A DNA stretch of 64,000 bases from assembly GCA_963764725.1 (NCBI GenBank), contig CAVXTM010000015.1, forward strand, positions 160,001 through 224,000, in the 5' to 3' direction. Shown here one piece after another: positions 4,693 to 39,054 of this stretch. How positions within the stretch are numbered: position 1 is the first letter of the stretch; the number at the start of each line of letters is the position of its first letter. The stretch comes from an uncultured Gammaproteobacteria bacterium (GTDB lineage: Bacteria; Pseudomonadota; Gammaproteobacteria; JACCXJ01). Below the pieces are notes generated by a model, which saw only the letters and a program-made list of their open reading frames with translations, had not been told where the DNA came from and did no database searches. Made by a program: the position numbers and the translations under genes.

Positions 4693-5715
4693 TCAAAGCG
4701 AGGCATCCAGCGGACTTCTTACCCCGCGCCCGCCCCGGTTGAGCACATGGGTATAGATCATGGTGGTCGAGACATCGGCGTGGCCGAGGAGCTCCTGCAC
4801 CGTTCGTATGTCGTAGCCGCCCTGCAACAGGTGCGTTGCGAAGGAATGGCGTAGGGTGTGGCAACTTGCAGGCTTTACCAAACCCGCGGTCCGAACCGCC
4901 TGTCTGAGACCACGCTGCAACACCGTCGGGTCGATATGATGCCTCCGCTCGATTCCGCTCGTCGGGTCGATCGACCGTTTCGATGCCGGAAAGACATACT
5001 GCCATCCCCATTCGCGATTGGCATTGGGGTACTTGCGCTCCAGCGCATAGGGCAGGTAGACGGTGCCAAAGCGCTCGGAGAGATCCCGCTCGTGCAGAGC
5101 CTTGACCTTGGAGAGATGCGTCCTTAGCGGTTCGACGAGCTGGGCGGGCAGCATAGTGATGCGGTCCTTCGCACCCTTGCCGTCGCGCACGACGATCTGG
5201 TGCATCGCGAAATCAAGGTCCTTGATGCGCAGCCGAAGGCACTCCATGAGTCGAAGTCCACTGCCGTAGAGCAGCCCTGCCATCAACCAGACGCTGCCCT
5301 TAAGCTCAGCCAGCACCGCGCGCACCTCCTCTACCGTCAAGACTATTGGCAAACGCACCGGCCGTTTGGCGCGTTCCACATTCTCAATGGTACCGAGCTC
5401 TTGCAGGAGCACGTGATGGTAGAGAAATACGAGCGCGTTGAGGGCCTGATTCTGCGTCGAAGCCGAGACCTTCCGCGCCACGGCCAAGTGTGTGAGGAAG
5501 GCTTCGACCTCGCGGGCACCCATCTGGCGTGGATGGCGCTTGCCGTGGAATAATATAAAGCGTTTAATCCAATGTATGTAGGCTTGCTCGGTGCGAATGC
5601 TGTAATGTCTCCGACGAACGACATCGCGAACCTGATCAAGCAGTCGGGGCGGAGGCGCTGGCGATTTGACGGCAACTTGCTCCTCGCCGTCTTTCCAACC
5701 AAGAACGATTCCCAT
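4693..5715 (-). CDS. intI: Integron integrase (intact)
   Basis: [20 protein letters not shown]-terminus, LLYGSGLR, IntI-specific insert ([23 protein letters not shown]), [23 protein letters not shown]. Confidence 0.98.
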
Positions 5716-5980: not shown

Positions 5981-6202
5981 ATGGAAAAGCAACTTACAGC
6001 TATCATCGAGCGTGAAGGAGATGGCTATGTTTCACTCTGCCCCGAGCTGGACATTGCGAGCCAGGGTGGCACTATCGAAGAGGCGCGCGATAACCTCCAA
6101 GAAGCTCTTCAGCTTTTCTTTGAATCCGCTTCGCCTGACGAGATCAAGCAACGTTTCCACGAAGAAGTGTATGTAACGCGGGTGCCCGTTGCCGTTGGGT
6201 AA
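5981..6202 (+). CDS. hicB: HicB-family antitoxin (cassette 1)
   Basis: AIIEREGDGYVSLCPELDIASQGGTIEEARDNLQEALQL; short form with no DNA-binding domain. Confidence 0.9.
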   Translation: MEKQLTAIIEREGDGYVSLCPELDIASQGGTIEEARDNLQEALQLFFESASPDEIKQRFHEEVYVTRVPVAVG

Positions 6203-6416
6203 ATTGAGAGCACTTTCCGGGAAAGAGCTATGCGCTATTCTCAACCGGCATGAATTCGTGGAAGTGCGTCAGCGGGGTAGCCACATCGTGATGCAAAAGA
6301 AGCTGCTGGGCACAACGATAACGGTGCCAGTGCCAAATCATCCAGAGCTTCGCATAGGCACGCTTCAGTCGATCATTCGTCAGTCCGGTGTACCACGGAG
6401 CGAGTTTGAGTCATGA
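6195..6416 (+). CDS. hicA: HicA-family mRNA interferase toxin (cassette 1; start may be 6189)
   Basis: RQRGSHIVM, VPVPNH.EL..GTL.SI.RQSG motifs; overlaps the hicB stop. Confidence 0.92.
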   Translation: MGKLRALSGKELCAILNRHEFVEVRQRGSHIVMQKKLLGTTITVPVPNHPELRIGTLQSIIRQSGVPRSEFES

Positions 6417-6423
6417 GGTTGGC

Positions 6424-6486
6424 GCCCAACAACGCGCTCCACACGGACGCTCCTGATCGTCGCGCCGGTGAGCTTATGCGTTAGGT
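6424..6486 (+). other. attC site 1
   Basis: R'' GCCCAAC, imperfect palindrome, R' GTTAGGT. Confidence 0.9.
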
Positions 6487-6499
6487 CTCACAGGTAGAC

Positions 6500-6928
6500 A
6501 TGCCGGACATTTCACCTCCAGTCGCGACACTCCTGGCAGTATTGCTCAGCGGCTTCTTGTTGCTATATGTCAATCGCAAGAATGCCCGCCGAACCGCTAC
6601 GGCGAAGTATCGTGCTGCGCTACTTGAGGCATTCACCGGTCTTTACCCAATTCCAACCAATTGGCCAGTCAACGTTGACGCGCATCTGAGGCAGATCTTT
6701 CCTCAACTTCAGCGCGCTGTAGCGGAGTTCCGTTCGTATGTTCCTTGGCGTCGCGCTTACGATCGAGCTTGGTTCGTGTATCGTCTTGGCACGGATGGTC
6801 GTGAAATCGACAAGCAGCTCTATCATCAGTACATGGGTTTCACTTCTCCCGGGGAACCGGTCATTAATCCCAAGGGAACGTTCTATACCAACGTCAACAA
6901 GTTGCTTGGTTTCGCCAGTGAGACCTAA
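6500..6928 (+). CDS. Hypothetical protein with N-terminal transmembrane helix (cassette 2)
   Basis: 142 aa ORF fills the cassette and stops inside R''. Cassette ends GTTAGGTCTCAC / GTGAGACCTAAC are 12 bp complementary. Confidence 0.85.
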   Translation: MPDISPPVATLLAVLLSGFLLLYVNRKNARRTATAKYRAALLEAFTGLYPIPTNWPVNVDAHLRQIFPQLQRAVAEFRSYVPWRRAYDRAWFVYRLGTDGREIDKQLYHQYMGFTSPGEPVINPKGTFYTNVNKLLGFASET

Positions 6929-6985
6929 CAACGCGTTCAAGGGGCGACGCGCGAAACGCGCGCGCCCTTAACGCGGGCGTTAGCT
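6923..6985 (+). other. attC site 2
   Basis: ACCTAAC..gcgttcaagggg..cccttaacgc..GTTAGCT, with the extrahelical base visible. Confidence 0.93.
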
Positions 6986-7001: not shown

Positions 7002-7817
7002 ATGTCAGATGACTCGAACGCCATAAAGATTGCAAACGACTCCGGCTTTCCGCTTCAAATTGTTGTTGAAACGATCGTTACAAAGTTGACGAAGTCTCAC
7101 GGCTGGAAGGTCCGCTTTTCTGAACACTCGTGGGCCAATCGTAAGGGCAGCGCCAGCGGCTTTATTGATTTGGTTCTAGAAGACAAGCACGGGAGTACGT
7201 ATCTCGTTCTAGAATGCAAGCGAAAGAACGAAACTTGGGTATTTATGCGCACGGACGGTACTGCAAAAACGCGGAAACACGCAAAGGCGTGGGCAACTCA
7301 CTATAGAGAAGAAACCCTAAAGCGGTTTGGATGGGAAGATGTTACGCCGGACCCGGCTTGTCCAGAAGCTAGTTCCTGTGCTGTTCGCGGGATGTCCGCT
7401 AACGACAAGACAACTATGCTGGAGCGAATCGGCGGCGAGCTTATAGAAGCAACAGAGGCCTTCGCCCGGGAACAGCGCGACTTCCGTCGATCGAAGCAAG
7501 AGACGATTCGTTTCTATTTCAACGTTATCGTAACTACCGCCCAACTGAAGATTGTAAAGTTCGCTCCGGAATCCATTTCCCTTGAGGATGGAACGTTTGC
7601 GGACGCAGAGGTTGTGGACGTTCCTTTTGTTCGCTTTCGAAAGCAGCTTTCGTCTCGCGCGGTACGCTTGACGCATGAGCAGTTCGAGAACGGGTTCGAC
7701 CCTGCATATGAGAGAGAGAATACGGTGTTTGTTGTTAGAGCAAGCGAACTCCTCGACTTTCTCCAACAATTTGAACTGTCTGAAAATGACTTTCTTAAAT
7801 TTGCGCATGAAAGCTAA
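7002..7817 (+). CDS. Putative PD-(D/E)xK (restriction-endonuclease-like) nuclease (cassette 3)
   Basis: SGFPLQ N-terminal helix, FIDLVLE...LVLECKR catalytic pattern; stop inside R''. Confidence 0.7.
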   Translation: MSDDSNAIKIANDSGFPLQIVVETIVTKLTKSHGWKVRFSEHSWANRKGSASGFIDLVLEDKHGSTYLVLECKRKNETWVFMRTDGTAKTRKHAKAWATHYREETLKRFGWEDVTPDPACPEASSCAVRGMSANDKTTMLERIGGELIEATEAFAREQRDFRRSKQETIRFYFNVIVTTAQLKIVKFAPESISLEDGTFADAEVVDVPFVRFRKQLSSRAVRLTHEQFENGFDPAYERENTVFVVRASELLDFLQQFELSENDFLKFAHES

Positions 7818-7901
7818 CCATCGCATCAAAGCCGTTCGCTTCTCTCACTCGACCGCGCAAGCGCGATGCACTTGCGCGGCGCTTTATGCGAGTCGTTGGG
7901 C
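7812..7901 (+). other. attC site 3
   Basis: AGCTAAC..cgcatcaaagc..gctttatgcg..GTTGGGC; R'' complements the cassette start GTTAGCTTT. Confidence 0.92.
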
Positions 7902-7971
7902 CGATCGTGGCGGCGTGCTATCCGAGGGGCTCCAGTCCGCGTCATCTCCTGAGGCTCCCTGAGACCTTTCG

Positions 7972-8851: not shown

Positions 8852-8857
8852 GACTCG

Positions 8858-8864
8858 GCCCAAC
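8858..8864 (+). other. attC site 4, left fragment (R'' box), split by the inserted element
   Basis: TCGGCCCAAC (8855-8864) complements the cassette 4 start GTTGGGCCGA (7895-7904); no attC body follows. Confidence 0.85.
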
Positions 8865-9177
8865 CAGTAACCAGTAAGGATTGAGACGACCATGGATGGT
8901 CGTTTCAATCCAATGTTCAAGAAGCCCGGTGTTGGGTGGGTTCTTTATTAGGGGATTGCTTCGGTGAAGGGTGGGTGATGTGGTGGCTATGGGAATCGGG
9001 AGCTGGAGATAGCCGAGTAGAGGGCGATCGGATCTGGGTGTTGGGTATCGTAATCGGGACGGGTTTAGGGAACTGTTAATAATGCCTTTCAGGGTGGGAT
9101 TAGGGGTAGCAGGCAAAGGGAGGACGTGACCCGAAGAAGACACCGGGGGCAGCGCGGCGTTTGCAAGTTGCTATGGG

Positions 9178-10307
9178 CTACACATGGGCTGGGGATCGTG
9201 TCGAGCCGGGTGGTCTGAGGTTTGTGGGCATCCATGGGCGGCGGATGCGCCGTGAGCTATGGAAGCGGAGTCGTCCCCCGCAGGCCTGGCAGGCCGGTTG
9301 TGGCCGGGGTGGCAGTTCGACCTCCGGTACGGTCACGGTGAAGCCAAAGGCCAATTCGACTTTGGCCTTGAGATCTGCGATGGGCACCTTGGCGGTGGGC
9401 GACAGGAAGCCATAGTAGCGGACTTTCATGAACCCGGTAGGCAAGACGTGCTGGAGGAAACGGCGGATGAACTCCAAGGCGTCGAGGATCACGGTCCGCA
9501 ACCGAGCGCTGCCGGTTTTTTTGTAGGAGAAGGAGACCCGTCCGTCCTCGACCTTGAGGATGCGGTGATCCGAGATAGCCACCTTGAAGACGTAGGGAGC
9601 GAGATAGGCGATCGAAGCCTCGGCACTGGGTACGGCCTGGCAGTTGACGTTCCAGTCCTGCTGCCAGGTCTCCGAGGGGATCTGATCGAGCAGTCCGGCG
9701 GTGTGCATGAGATCGCGGAACTTGCCGCGGAAAAGCCGTGAGAGGGCTTTCACGGGCAAGAAGAAGGCGAGGCTTGAGGCATGCCAGGCGCCATCCTCAG
9801 CGGAAAGCGCCCCGCCCGGTACCACATAATGGATGTGGGGGTGATACTGTAGCTGTCGGCCCCAGGGTGAAGCACTCCGAAGAAGCCGGCTTGGTCCGCG
9901 TTGAGGAAGCGCGGATCGCGCACCAGCGTTTTGATGGCTTGAGAGGAGGCCTGGAACAGTGCATCGTAGCCCAGTTGCTGGTGGCTGCGCAGAAACGCGC
10001 GCAGGGGCTCGGGGACGGTGAAGGTGAGCATGAAGTGGTGGCCTGGCAGCTGGCGATGCAATTGTCGCTCGAGCCACTGTTGGGACTTGCGGTGTTGGCA
10101 GCCGGGGCAATGACGATTGCCGCAGGCGGCCGGGACGCGATGGTGATGGCCGCATTCCTCGCACTGATAGCAGACTGAGCCATAGATCTCGGTGCGGCAT
10201 TGGCAGATGGCCTCGAGGGTCTTTTTGTGCTCTCTGGGCATGGATTGTTCGTAGTGCTGGAGATATCCAGGGCCGTAGGTGCGGAAGATGTCATTGATGA
10301 TCCCCAT
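9178..10307 (-). pseudogene. IS91-family (Y2) transposase, 1 nt deletion at ~9866
   Basis: N-terminal Zn finger (CRT..CEECGH..ACGNRHCPGCQ), GVLH[T]WG..LQYHPHIH HUH motif broken by the frameshift, YLAPYV, VRYYGFL. Confidence 0.92.
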
Positions 10308-10308
10308 C

Positions 10309-11182
10309 TCAAAGGCCCTCCATCACTTGGTTGATGAGGGTTGAGGCGTTGTCCTGACCGGCCTGGGTCATATGGAGGTAGACCATAGTGGTCTCGAGGC
10401 TGCTGTGGCCGAGGTAGCGCTGGATGGTGCGGATATTGACGCCGGCTTCCAGCAGGTGAGTAGCATAGGAATGTCTGAGAGAATGCACGCAGGCCTCGCG
10501 TGCTCGGGTCTGAGCGGCGAACTTGGCGCGACGGAAGGTGCCCTGCACGGAGCTCTTAGCCATGGGGTGGGAAGCCGAGCGGGCGGACTTGGCATCGCGC
10601 CCCATCGCGGGGAAGAGGAGCCTCGGGTTACGATGCGAGGCCCAGTGTTTGCGCAGGATGAGGAGGGTTGCTTGAGGCAGGGGGACGAGGCGGTCTTTGG
10701 CCCCTTTGCCGCGGTGGATGTGCAACATCATCCGCTGGCTGTCAATATCGGCGATCTCCAGATGCTGGGCCTCCTGCAGCCTCAGGCCGCAGGCGTAGAC
10801 GGTGGCGAGGAAGGCGTAGTTGTGTGGGGTTCGGACGCAGCTCAGCAAGCGGCGGACTTCTTCACGGCTGAGCACGGTGGGCAGCTGCTTCTCGCGTTGG
10901 GCATGGATGAGTCGAAGGGTATGCCAGTTGCGGTGAAGGACGTACTCGAAGAAGAAGCGGATCCCGCTATAGCAGATCCGTAAAGTGGCCGGTGACCAAC
11001 GATCGACGTTTCGCCGGTGGAGAAAATAGTGTTGCAGATCCTCCTCGGTGATCTGATCCGGGGTTTTATGATAAAACTCCACGAGCATGCGCACCGCACG
11101 GGTGTACGCTTCTTGGGTGCGCTCGCCCTTTGCCGTTGAGCTGGAGGGCTTGAATGGATTTCTCGTACCAATCTTTCATCAT
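10309..11182 (-). pseudogene. Tyrosine recombinase (phage-integrase family), +1 frameshift at ~11127
   Basis: YACGLR, GKGAKDR, HSLRHSYATHLLE, LGH, TMVY. The N-terminus MMKDWYEKSIQALQLNGKG/ERTQEAYTRAVRML is split by an extra G. The called ORF 10309-11094 is the downstream part. Confidence 0.9.
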
Positions 11183-11352
11183 GGAAGGTCTCCTGTCGTA
11201 AAGGGATTAGAAGTCCGGGAAGCTCCGCGGACTTCGGACAGGAAAACAGAATTGACGTGAGGGCTAAAGACCGGCGACCGATGGGTGTGAGACAAACCGA
11301 ACTACGGCAACCAGGATCGGCAAACCGAATCTGCCGCGTAGCGGCTTACTTG

Positions 11353-11444
11353 AACTAGCGGTTGCAGCGGAGCGCTCGCCGCAGACTTTGAAGGTAGCTA
11401 GAATTTGGTGGCGGCTTCGCGCCCGCTGAACCTGATCGTTGGTC
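11353..11444 (+). other. attC site 4, right fragment
   Basis: AAC-tagcggttgcagcgg...ccgctgaacc-tgatc-GTTGGTC palindrome. Confidence 0.85.
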
Positions 11445-11600: not shown

Positions 11601-12175
11601 ATGCCGGATTATCGTCGTTATCGTGTACCCGGAGGCACGTACTTTTTCACCATCAATTTATTGGAGCGTCGGGCCGACTTGTTGGTGCGACATATCGAAG
11701 CGTTACGGGAGGCGGTGAAGCGTACGCGGGCCAAACGACCATTCCATATCGATGCCTGGGTCGTGCTACCCGATCACATGCATTGCGTGATTACCCTACC
11801 ACCCGGCGACGATGGCTTTTCCAATCGCATTCAGGGTTCGCTTTGTACAGGCGCTGGCGCCCGACGGAGCGGCGTTCATCGGTACGAATGGCCAAGGGTG
11901 AAAGCCAGGGCCAGGGATTGGCCCTGCCTGGCGCGCTGAGGATGCAACGTGGTATCTGGCAACGCCGTTTTTGGGAGCATGCCATTCGGGACGAGAGAGA
12001 TTATTCGCGCCATATGGATTACGTCCACTTCAACCCGGTCAAACATGGCTACGTTTCGGTGGTTGCTCAATGGCCCCATTCGACGTTTCATCGGTGGGTG
12101 AAGGCAGGTGCCTATCCACACGACTGGGGCGGCGAGGGTGCGTTGGATGTTGTCGCCGGCGAGCATGGACAATAA
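11601..12175 (+). pseudogene. REP-associated tyrosine transposase (RAYT/TnpA-REP), disrupted
   Basis: MPDYRR..PGGTYFFT, WVVLPDHMH, RGIWQRRFWEHAIRD, DYVHFNPVKHG, WPHSTF; frameshifts at ~11830-11862. Confidence 0.92.
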
Positions 12176-37245: not shown

Positions 37246-37330
37246 GGAGGGGTACCCAAGCGGCCAACGGGGGCAGACTGTAAATCTGCTGGCTTATGCC
37301 TTCGTAGGTTCGAATCCTACCCCCTCCACC
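37246..37330 (+). tRNA. tRNA-Tyr(GTA)
   Basis: GGAGGGG/CCCCTCC acceptor stem, CTGTAAA anticodon loop, long variable arm, GTTCGAATC. Confidence 0.96.
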
Positions 37331-37364
37331 GGGCAGTAGCCGGGTAGCGAAGGCCGGGCGAGAA

Positions 37365-37438
37365 GCGGGTGTAGTTCAACGGTAGAACCTCAGCCTTCCA
37401 AGCTGATGACATGGGTTCGATTCCCATCACCCGCTCCA
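37365..37438 (+). tRNA. tRNA-Gly(TCC)
   Basis: GCGGGTG/CACCCGC stem, TTCCAA loop, CCA end. Confidence 0.96.
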
Positions 37439-37444
37439 GTTGAC

Positions 37445-37520
<76 letters not shown>

Positions 37521-37694
37521 GTTCTAGGGCACGTACAATATATCGCCCGCGGGGCAGGTGTCCCGCGGACCACCAAAGGGGAGAGTTGCACTTCTCCCCT
37601 TTGGAAACCCTAATGCTAGAGTGCCCGCCGGAAGCGGCGGGGTATTAATGAAAACCGTCGAGCGGTGAGACGAGCGAAAGCGGAGAACTGAGTT

Positions 37695-38885
37695 ATGTCC
37701 AAGGAGAAATTTCAGCGAACGAAGCCGCATGTGAATGTAGGGACGATAGGGCATGTGGATCATGGGAAGACGACGTTGACGGCGGCGTTGACGATGGTGA
37801 TGTCGAAGAAGTTTGGAGGGGAGGTCAAGGGTTATGATCAGATCGACAATGCGCCCGAGGAGAAGGCGAGGGGGATCACGATAGCGACGGCGCATGTGGA
37901 GTACCAGAGTGAGAAGCGGCACTATGCGCATGTGGACTGTCCGGGGCATGCGGATTATGTGAAGAACATGATCACGGGGGCGGCGCAGATGGATGGGGCG
38001 ATATTAGTGGTGAGTGCGGCGGATGGGCCGATGCCGCAGACGCGCGAGCACATTTTGTTGGCGCGTCAGGTAGGGGTGCCCTACATTGTGGTGTACATGA
38101 ACAAGGCGGACATGGTGGATGATGCGGAGTTACTGGAATTAGTGGAGATGGAGGTCAGGGAGTTACTGGACAGTTACAAGTTTCCCGGGGAGAAGACGCC
38201 GGTGGTGGTGGGGAGTGCGTTGAAGGCGTTGGAGGGGGAGGGGAGTGAGCTTGGGGTGCAGTCCATCGAGAAGCTAGTGGCGGCGATGGATGAGTACATT
38301 CCGGTGCCCGAGCGGGCGGTGGATCAGCCGTTTTTGATGCCGATTGAGGATGTATTTTCGATCTCCGGGCGGGGGACGGTGGTGACGGGTCGAGTGGAGC
38401 GTGGGCGGGTCAAGGTCGGGGAGGAGGTAGCGATTGTTGGGATCCGGGAGACGCAGAAGACGATCTGCACGGGGGTGGAGATGTTTCGGAAGTTATTGGA
38501 TGAAGGGCAGGCGGGGGACAATGTCGGGGTGTTGCTGAGGGGGACCAAGCGCGAGGAGGTGGAGCGTGGACAGGTATTATGCAAGCCGGGGAGTGTGACG
38601 CCGCACACCCATTTTGAGGCGGAGGTGTATGTGTTATCGAAGGAAGAGGGAGGGAGGCACACGCCGTTTTTCAGCAATTACCGGCCGCAGTTTTATTTTC
38701 GGACCACCGATGTAACGGGGGCGGTGGAGTTACCCTCAGGGGTGGAGATGGTGATGCCTGGGGACAATGTGAAGATGGTGGTGAAGTTGATTGCGCCGAT
38801 TGCGATGGAAGAGGGGGTGAGGTTTGCGATCCGCGAAGGGGGCCGCACCGTCGGGGCCGGCGTCGTCGCTAAGGTCATCGAGTAG
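37695..38885 (+). CDS. tuf: Elongation factor Tu (copy 1)
   Basis: [21 protein letters not shown]. Confidence 0.99.
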
Positions 38886-38981
38886 CGCGCTACCGCGCGC
38901 CATATGGGCAGAGTTTAAGTCGTCGGAACAAATTAGAGGATCTTATCGGAACCTAGCGCGACCTAGCCTTTTTAGGGGTAT

Positions 38982-39054
38982 AGGCCAGTAGCTCAATTGG
39001 CAGAGCGGCGGTCTCCAAAACCGCAGGTTGGGGGTTCGAGTCCCTCCTGGCCTG
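38982..39054 (+). tRNA. tRNA-Trp(CCA)
   Basis: AGGCCAG/CTGGCCT stem, CTCCAAA loop; position tuf-Trp-secE. Confidence 0.95.

Follow-up and report, generated by a model that had tools for sequence, protein, structure and literature searches.

The locus described here raises the question of how a mobile element of 2.5 kb comes to lie exactly inside an integron recombination site, between the R'' box of one attC and the rest of that site. The sequence analysed (the window) consists of 64,000 nucleotides (nt) of an uncultured Gammaproteobacteria bacterium (GenBank assembly GCA_963764725.1, contig CAVXTM010000015.1, positions 160,001 to 224,000 of the forward strand), and its left part is a complete integron with the cassettes on the plus strand. 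The insert, antisense to the cassettes, is a degenerate copy of an IS91-family insertion sequence (IS) in which a tyrosine recombinase gene stands directly upstream of the Y2/HUH transposase gene (tnpA), both on the minus strand. In this study, we report that the lineage to which it belongs homes to attC sites, always directly after the AAC of R'' on the cassette top strand and always antisense to the cassettes. On the bottom strand, the landing point is 5' of GTTRRRY.

The insertion in attC4

The three intact attC sites upstream of the insert (~6424-6486, ~6923-6985 and ~7813-7902) share one geometry, in which a spacer of 5 nt separates R'' (RYYYAAC) from L'' (3+1+4 nt, one base being bulged), and a variable stem leads to L' and, after a spacer of 6 nt, to R' (GTTRRRY). 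The start of each cassette is complementary to that cassette's own R''. The fourth site, attC4, has the same geometry (5-nt spacer, 3+1+4 L'', 6-nt spacer) in two separate pieces on the plus strand. Its R'', TCGGCCCAAC, lies at 8855-8864 (GCCCAAC being 8858-8864), and its 10 nt are complementary to the start of cassette 4, which together with R' of attC3 reads GTTGGGCCGA at 7896-7905. The remaining piece was located at 11356-11444 by direct reading and folding, and comprises the spacer TAGCG (11356-11360), L'' GTTGCAGC with one bulged base (11361-11368), the variable stem, L' GCTGAAC (11425-11431), the spacer CTGATC (11432-11437) and R' GTTGGTC (11438-11444). Emptied of the element in a script, attC4 measures 96 nt and folds into one long hairpin with R'' and R' paired, with energies of -22.8 kcal/mol for the top strand and -22.2 kcal/mol for the bottom strand (z ~-3.0 and ~-3.5, respectively, relative to 300 shuffles).

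AAC is present at both junctions of the element (8862-8864 and 11353-11355), without further duplication. A preliminary description of this sequence had reported the splitting of attC4 at R'' by an antisense recombinase-IS91 unit with these junctions, and direct reading proved it correct to the base. It had missed a tandem repeat at the left junction, where AACCAGT occurs twice without mismatch (8862-8868 and 8869-8875), thus adding 7 nt (8865-8871). The repeat unit consists of the AAC of the target and the 4 nt with which the element ends, and other copies pass straight from xTAAC into CAGTAAGG without it. Because of this repeat and of the comparison with the other copies, the conserved oriIS end was set at 8872 and the terIS end at 11355; on the plus strand of the window the element begins with CAGTAAGGATTGAG and ends with GCGGCTTACTTGAAC. 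The target at the left junction is therefore CAAC (CCCAAC), the three odd bases "cag" being explained by the repeat. A similar triple TTGGTT was found at the same oriIS/target junction of another locus (L020, ~7291-7310), and two further loci have a solo oriIS end of ~40-50 nt directly beside the full element (L025, ~7291-7345; L069, ~7448-7490). The short junction repeats and the solo ends may have been left behind where the oriIS/target joint was cut repeatedly or abortively.

No empty site for cassette 4 was found in the 40 relatives searched. In public runs, which were consulted as assembled contigs and are thus unable to show rare forms, neither an element-skipping joint nor a circle junction was seen. 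In two contigs from these runs the element abuts other flanks, with a 5-nt spacer and an L''-like octamer in the 30 nt visible in each.

Other copies in the same genome

BLAST against the whole genome revealed four more full-length copies with 89-91% identity, two on contig C10, one on C7 and one on C9, all with both genes intact (recombinase of 290 amino acids (aa), transposase of 376-391 aa). Given that the two C10 copies share their flanks, they count as one event, and the independent full-length sites are four, including that of the window. In all four, a spacer of 5 nt separates TTGAAC from an L'' that has one bulged base and pairs 7/7 with an L' placed 6 nt before GTTRRRY; at the C9 site, a 10-bp tandem repeat precedes R'. 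The other (left) flank of the copies ends in xTAAC. On C10, the cassette begins 745 bp upstream with the complement of this flank, TAAC included (a 12-mer that extends to a 15-mer), and the flank is therefore the R'' of the target. For the same reason, the possibility that TAAC belonged to the element was rejected. The genome contains 104,024 AAC/GTT positions and, by our own heuristic, at most 109 attC-like matches, so the placement of four out of four insertions at the AAC of R'' is not due to chance.

Some further traits of these copies deserve mention. The two C10 copies (C10:130601-133133 and C10:136655-139182) lie 6 kb apart and share their flanks over 120 nt on the left and ~59 nt on the right, which points to duplication of a unit of cassette and element, not to two insertions. 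In the C9 copy (C9:5976-9489), ~1 kb of additional DNA separates the region of the oriIS end from the remainder of the element. With very small numbers, the bulged base of L'' (top strand) was G in 3 of the 4 occupied sites and C in most of the unoccupied attC-like sites. The genome also harbors five fragments: the four terminal ones all retain the oriIS end and the fifth, on C16, retains neither end. Such retention would be expected if copying starts at oriIS and sometimes aborts, simple deletion being the alternative.

An occupied and an empty site on plasmids

In the Escherichia coli IncC plasmid NZ_LT985243.1, a class 1 integron has a recombinase-transposase pair, in antisense orientation, between its aadA1 cassette and qacEdelta1-sul1. 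The occupied aadA1 attC reads gaattGTT/element/GTTAGAC, where slashes mark the junctions, and the corresponding empty site is gaattGTTAGAC. The two junctions in full are ggcttgaacgaattGTT/GAACGAAGCCGC and CCTTATTT/GTTAGACattatttgcc. The uninterrupted aadA1 site is found on thousands of plasmids, one retrieved example of which reads ggcttgaacgaattGTTAGACattatttgcc, and the element of NZ_LT985243.1 is present in full in only 1 of 72,556 plasmid records. Because occupied and empty sites could be compared, it is established that the element plus one GTT was inserted exactly at R'' (GTCTAAC) of the aadA1 attC. The empty aadA1 attC is continuous, and the cassette upstream of an insertion is left with R'' only. 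The element was also considered as an integron gene cassette, which would be bounded by G/TT and have a complete attC of its own; it sits instead between R'' and the spacer of one attC, and this assignment was discarded.

Relatives in other genomes

Relatives were sought in a scan with the intact recombinase, limited to one genome per species, and the best 80 of 496 confirmed stretches were analysed. The IS91 tnpA was also matched in 71 of these 80 recombinase loci, usually starting less than ~100 nt after the recombinase gene, and several of the nine others are cut by contig ends. Unique insertion sites with at least 200 nt of flank (n = 58) were scored with a home-made attC test, using random AAC positions of the same loci as controls. 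Its strict form required a 5-nt spacer and an 8-nt L'' bulged at position 4 and pairing with 7 nt that lie 6 nt before a GTT placed 35-170 nt away; a slightly relaxed form was also applied. The strict form was passed by 22 of the 58 sites and 65 of 8778 controls, and either form by 25 of 58 and 83 of 8778 (odds ratio ~79, Fisher p ~1e-33, both rough since sites of the same genome are not independent of each other). The 25 positives are distributed over 19 assemblies and at least six named phyla, with representatives in the Gammaproteobacteria, "Rokubacteria", Nitrospirota, Desulfobacterota, Kiritimatiellota (Pontiella) and Planctomycetota. Outside two Nitrospirota metagenome-assembled genomes (MAGs), which are considered below, 25 of 39 sites pass. 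The mirror arrangement, that is, insertion on the R' side in cassette orientation, was seen at none of the 58 sites (controls, 44/8778). Both ends could be placed at 21 sites, and in 17 of them removal of the element gave back an attC, 57-117 nt long and matching in L at 6/7 or better.

Thus, position and orientation are fixed, attC sites are enriched over the background and attC is restored when the element is removed. The proposal of a further class of attC-targeting elements with a fixed junction and fixed reverse orientation, made in the preliminary description, is borne out by the enrichment in the flanks of homologous recombinase-Y2 pairs, by the lack of reversed sites among the 58 and by the aadA1 pair of sites. 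We consider it highly probable that attC targeting is real and widespread.

In the transposase tree, all attC-inserted elements fall inside one clade of 22 rows (support 95/91). The two Nitrospirota lineages found outside attC have as their sister L014, a Nitrospirota element that is inserted in an attC. Two copies that are 99.8% identical, in one genome, differ in their sites, L017 being negative and L018 positive. Homing to attC is a strong preference of one large clade and not an absolute requirement. As a separate observation, plasmids of rhizobia, sphingomonads and roseobacters often carry the recombinase-IS91 pair (368 and 328 records at the E-value limits applied).

Genes and ends of the element

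The transposase gene of the window copy (9178-10307, minus strand) is frameshifted and was recognized in two frames (9750-10307 and 9178-10200) with PF14319 and PF04986; the NF033538 scores of the two frames, 159.5 and 182.4 bits, are both above the cut-off of 125. The recombinase gene (10309-11182, minus strand; PF00589 with 116 bits, PF13495) has its N-terminal part out of frame, and its stop codon adjoins the start of tnpA. Recombinase and Y2 transposase were the only domains found in the element. With both genes frameshifted, the window copy is dead, and the R box of attC4 is destroyed.

The transposase has the N-terminal Zn-binding domain and the Y2 domain of the IS91 family, with HUH and two catalytic tyrosines; across 32 sequences, residues H156, H158, H160, Y235 and Y239 vary little or not at all. 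The element also has the two distinct ends of this family, terIS upstream and oriIS downstream, both with subterminal hairpins. That of oriIS (8878-8911, minus strand) has a 16-bp stem and begins 6 nt from the cleavage point. Across the family its structure is kept while the sequences differ, and the unpaired tail was of 4-7 nt, mostly 6, in 14 of 20 folds. On the coding strand, the terIS tip (11333-11355, minus strand) reads GTTCAAGTAA followed by the hairpin GCCGC-TAC-GCGGC, the family form being GCCGC-NNN-GCGGC. The terIS motif GTT/CAAGTAAGCCGCTnCGCGGCAG is kept in relatives of many phyla, even at ~42% protein identity. In addition, the motif GGGCTTCTTGAAC is found at 8915-8929, ~45 nt inside the oriIS end, and in the same place in most relatives. 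It is an inverted near-copy of the terIS tip GTTCAAGTAAGCC and may constitute a second binding site.

For IS801 and IS1294, the rule is that the terIS tetranucleotide GTTC belongs to the element and that the target tetranucleotide abuts oriIS, without duplication (PMC13181058). In the elements studied here, terIS is likewise GTTC and the flank after oriIS is GTTA, GTTG or GTTC followed by R-box-like bases, corresponding to a target GTTN, with no duplication, as the aadA1 pair of sites confirms. In one Nitrospirota lineage, terIS and target have both changed to ATTC, the flank being ATTC, ATTA or ATTT. The AAC found at both junctions is accounted for because the IS91-family rule alone yields AAC/GTT there.

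The recombinase belongs to the tyrosine recombinase superfamily, and none of its catalytic residues R134, K159, H233, R236, H259 and Y268 varies among 31 sequences with identities as low as 37%. Given this invariance, the recombinase very likely cuts DNA at some step. Its best profile was TIGR02249, that of the integron integrases, and it was examined as a possible IntI. However, it reached only 168.2 bits, in two stretches, against a cut-off of 265, and the assignment was rejected. It is 29% identical to the resident IntI, with an alignment gap of ~31 residues at the IntI-specific insert. This insert is the part of IntI that reads the extrahelical bases.

Mechanism and alternative explanations

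As to which enzyme makes the attC joints, we lean slightly towards the HUH transposase, with the recombinase as an essential accessory, on the basis of the ends and genes described above. The transposase would cut the bottom strand of the element after xAAC at oriIS and after TTGAAC at terIS, and a single strand of the element would be joined into a single-stranded target cut after AAC, giving R''-AAC/element...TTGAAC/spacer-L'' without duplication. The bottom strand of the element has the polarity of the cassette top strand. Because only the bottom-strand circle of IS91 inserts (PMC13181058) and the polarities match, the cut would be placed after the AAC of R'' in a single-stranded attC top strand. 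This strand may be preferred in that its AAC, 5 nt and hairpin mimic the AAC, 6 nt and hairpin of the element's own oriIS. In chromosomal arrays, the attC top strands lie on the lagging-strand template (PMC11023631), where they would be single-stranded and able to fold; the GC skew, positive on the plus strand along contig C15, is a weak fit with such exposure. When no attC is present, the same elements would fall back on plain (G/A)TTN sites. The recombinase would be catalytically active, candidate steps being attC recognition, circle or junction processing and termination.

It must be noted that several observations weigh against homing to attC as a universal rule or against the transposase as the joining enzyme. 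In the two Nitrospirota MAGs, which hold many near-identical copies of close relatives that also have the recombinase, none of 19 sites is attC-like, and these elements lie at plain (G/A)TTN sites. The 19 sites are rich in AT and do not exceed the controls in structure (mean folding energy -2.4 vs -3.6 kcal/mol, one-sided p 0.997); with no hairpin enrichment at them, a hairpin is not a general requirement for insertion. No IntI above the cut-off was found in these two genomes, while 1-3 were found in each of three genomes with attC-inserted copies. Outside the two MAGs, 14 of the 39 sites fail the attC test, four of which (L019, L037, L048 and L054) were labelled borderline for the tree. In a distant clade with GAACNA at terIS, 1 of 14 sites is an attC, namely that of the E. 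coli plasmid, and a copy on a Photobacterium plasmid is near a hairpin, not in a canonical attC. The test itself is our own heuristic and not the model of IntegronFinder. In addition, the AAC of R'' is part of a duplex once attC has folded fully, which is awkward for a nuclease of single strands, and the invariant catalytic set of the recombinase points to a cutting of DNA whose step the favored explanation does not specify. Finally, a crossover by the recombinase at GTT would yield the same junction sequence as the transposase, so the enzyme that makes the joint cannot be read from the junctions.

In one alternative, the element would enter the folded attC as a circle, through a single-strand exchange at AAC/GTT that the recombinase itself performs in the manner of IntI with cassettes, but on the top strand at R'', the transposase only making the circle or serving a second pathway to GTTN, as in Tn7. 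The use of plain GTTN elsewhere by the same elements makes two such pathways conceivable, and the invariance of the catalytic residues, the affinity to the integron integrases (below the cut-off, as said) and the strict orientation, as for a recombinase that reads structure, all speak for it. The joined ends of the element would read CTTACT-GGTTCA-AGTAAG, with 6-bp inverted arms around 6 bp, which suggests the core form of a tyrosine recombinase site. Nevertheless, the recombinase has no counterpart of the ~31-residue insert, the junctions have the same form whether or not they lie in attC, the target shows no evident binding site for the recombinase apart from GTT and the chemistry of IS91 fully explains the junction rule. 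We regard this alternative as fairly unlikely. In this regard, the preliminary description had attributed the integration to site-specific recombination. This is not supported as stated, given that the IS91 rule suffices for the AAC/GTT junctions, that relatives with the recombinase have often entered (G/A)TTN sites outside attC in the two integrase-less genomes and that the crossover of IntI takes place at R' on the bottom strand, not at R'' (PMC7923331). 

The recombinase could also act without cutting, as a targeting or fidelity subunit that binds the folded attC or the terIS hairpin and recruits or restrains TnpA. In IS91, Orf121 is encoded upstream, is translationally coupled and improves the recognition of terIS (PMC13181058), and the gene order and adjoining stop and start codons of the present pair are like those of orf121-tnpA. 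Some weak support comes from a predicted transposase-recombinase complex, with a score of 0.56 (runs 0.50, 0.56 and 0.59; best of three controls, 0.00), at least 45% of contacts in agreement between runs and a partner predicted local distance difference test (pLDDT) value of at least 79. Among solved complexes, 58 of 80 attained the mark on this score, as did 2 of 110 mismatched pairs, with our own alignments and hence rough counts; at scores of 0.60 or less, it was reached by only 7 of those 80 complexes and by both mismatched pairs. However, the score lies in a range that is more often wrong than right, an adaptor would not need an invariant catalytic set, and elements with the recombinase also insert away from attC; a purely non-covalent role is thus improbable. 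As for an absence of any targeting, elements could insert at any GTTN and survive in cassette arrays because they are harmless there, in line with the need of IS91 elements for only a tetranucleotide and with the existence of non-attC insertions. This is scarcely credible, since selection cannot put 25 independent insertions at the same nucleotide and strand of a site of 60-120 nt, and since the equally harmless GTT of R' was never used. In a further reading, the part of the recombinase might be to read the folded, non-recombinogenic top strand of attC and either pass this strand to the HUH transposase or carry out the exchange itself, a suggestion that we make tentatively and hold to be possible rather than probable.

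Comparison with known systems

The element resembles IS91, IS801 and IS1294 in the Zn-binding and Y2 domains, the distinct terIS and oriIS ends with subterminal hairpins, the GTTC of terIS, the target tetranucleotide beside oriIS, the lack of duplication and an upstream open reading frame (ORF) whose stop adjoins the tnpA start. It differs in that this ORF encodes a 290-aa tyrosine recombinase instead of Orf121, and in that the target, in integron-bearing genomes, is a structured attC with a fixed nucleotide and strand, not any GTTC/CTTG. Several IS91-family members in ISfinder reportedly have an upstream integrase gene, and members of the ISShvi3 type have the same int-tnpA architecture. A survey of Shewanella mentions an IS91-like ISShvi3 adjacent to attC and states that no IS interrupted an attC (PMC9229058). 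In full-text searches, which left outside subscription journals, ISfinder/TnPedia and supplements, no paper describing attC homing by IS91-type elements was found.

Only two kinds of attC-targeting elements have been cited. Group IIC-attC introns enter the bottom strand of attC at R'' (consensus TTGT/T), after the hairpin and opposite to cassette transcription (PMC7923331). They share box and orientation with the present element within 1-2 nt (compare gaaTTGTT/ on the plasmid) but are retroelements with a ribozyme and a reverse transcriptase, and their mechanism is unrelated. In the available part of the literature, the IS1111-attC elements of the IS110 family are the only insertion sequences cited as attC-targeting, and like the present element they home to attC without duplication, although they have a DEDD-type transposase in place of the HUH and tyrosine recombinase enzymes. 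The point of insertion within attC is also different in IS1111-attC elements. Membership in either group was considered and rejected, as neither a ribozyme with reverse transcriptase nor a DEDD transposase was found; a search of the window with Rfam gave four tRNAs and no match to an intron or attC model, and the domain search of the element detected no reverse transcriptase. The lineage described here thus appears to be a new, third enzymatic class of attC-homing elements, beside IS1111-attC elements and group IIC-attC introns.

Comparison with IntI and XerCD, which act on folded single-stranded DNA, places the recombinase of the element in the Xer/IntI branch, with a SAM-like N-domain (PF13495) and TIGR02249 as best profile (168 bits), and the target of the element is a substrate of IntI. 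In contrast to IntI, its score is below the cut-off of 265, it has no IntI insert and it would act, if at all, at R'' on the top strand, whereas IntI acts at R' on the bottom strand.

Integron and neighbouring features of the window

The integron integrase gene intI lies at 4693-5715 of the minus strand (TIGR02249 with 496.5 bits, PF00589, PF13495). The first cassette (5981-6416) has a gene for a HicA toxin (PF07927, 63.5 bits), and a small ORF in front of this gene weakly resembles UPF0150/HicB (16.7 bits, under the cut-off). The cassette thus looks like a toxin-antitoxin unit adjoining attI. Cassette 5 (11601-12175, plus strand) has a frameshifted gene for a transposase of the repetitive extragenic palindrome (REP)-associated tyrosine type, which is another HUH enzyme (NF047646, 91.4 and 83.2 bits in two frames). 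The start of this cassette recurs after the element copy C10:130601-133133, from C10 ~133190 onward. The four tRNA genes are clustered at 37246-39054.

The preliminary description held that the array downstream of the insertion was left intact. This is only half right: cassette 5 does come next, but attC4 has lost the ability to form its R box, the bottom strand of the occupied site being able to form the L box alone. For this reason, cassette 4, the element and cassette 5 are probably locked together.

Biological meaning

A third kind of attC-homing element, with enzymes different from those of the other two, would show that the folded attC is a general landing pad for elements that act on single strands, and the strand used here is the one that the integron integrase does not use. 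The finding gives a testable function to the recombinase genes that accompany many IS91 relatives, and a natural system in which to study how an HUH transposase picks a structured target. It also explains the "IS91-like" genes inside cassette arrays, at present annotated as cassette cargo. Given that each insertion breaks one attC R box and fuses the neighboring cassettes, the stability of arrays is shaped by these elements, and the aadA1 attC case on a conjugative IncC plasmid indicates that the phenomenon reaches clinical integrons. If the recombinase does read the attC top strand, HUH transposase and tyrosine recombinase would together constitute a two-enzyme pathway of single-strand transposition, the long-unexplained integrases associated with IS91 would have a function, and integrons would have a third class of parasite, converged on the same nucleotide as the group IIC-attC introns and already present in a clinical class 1 integron.

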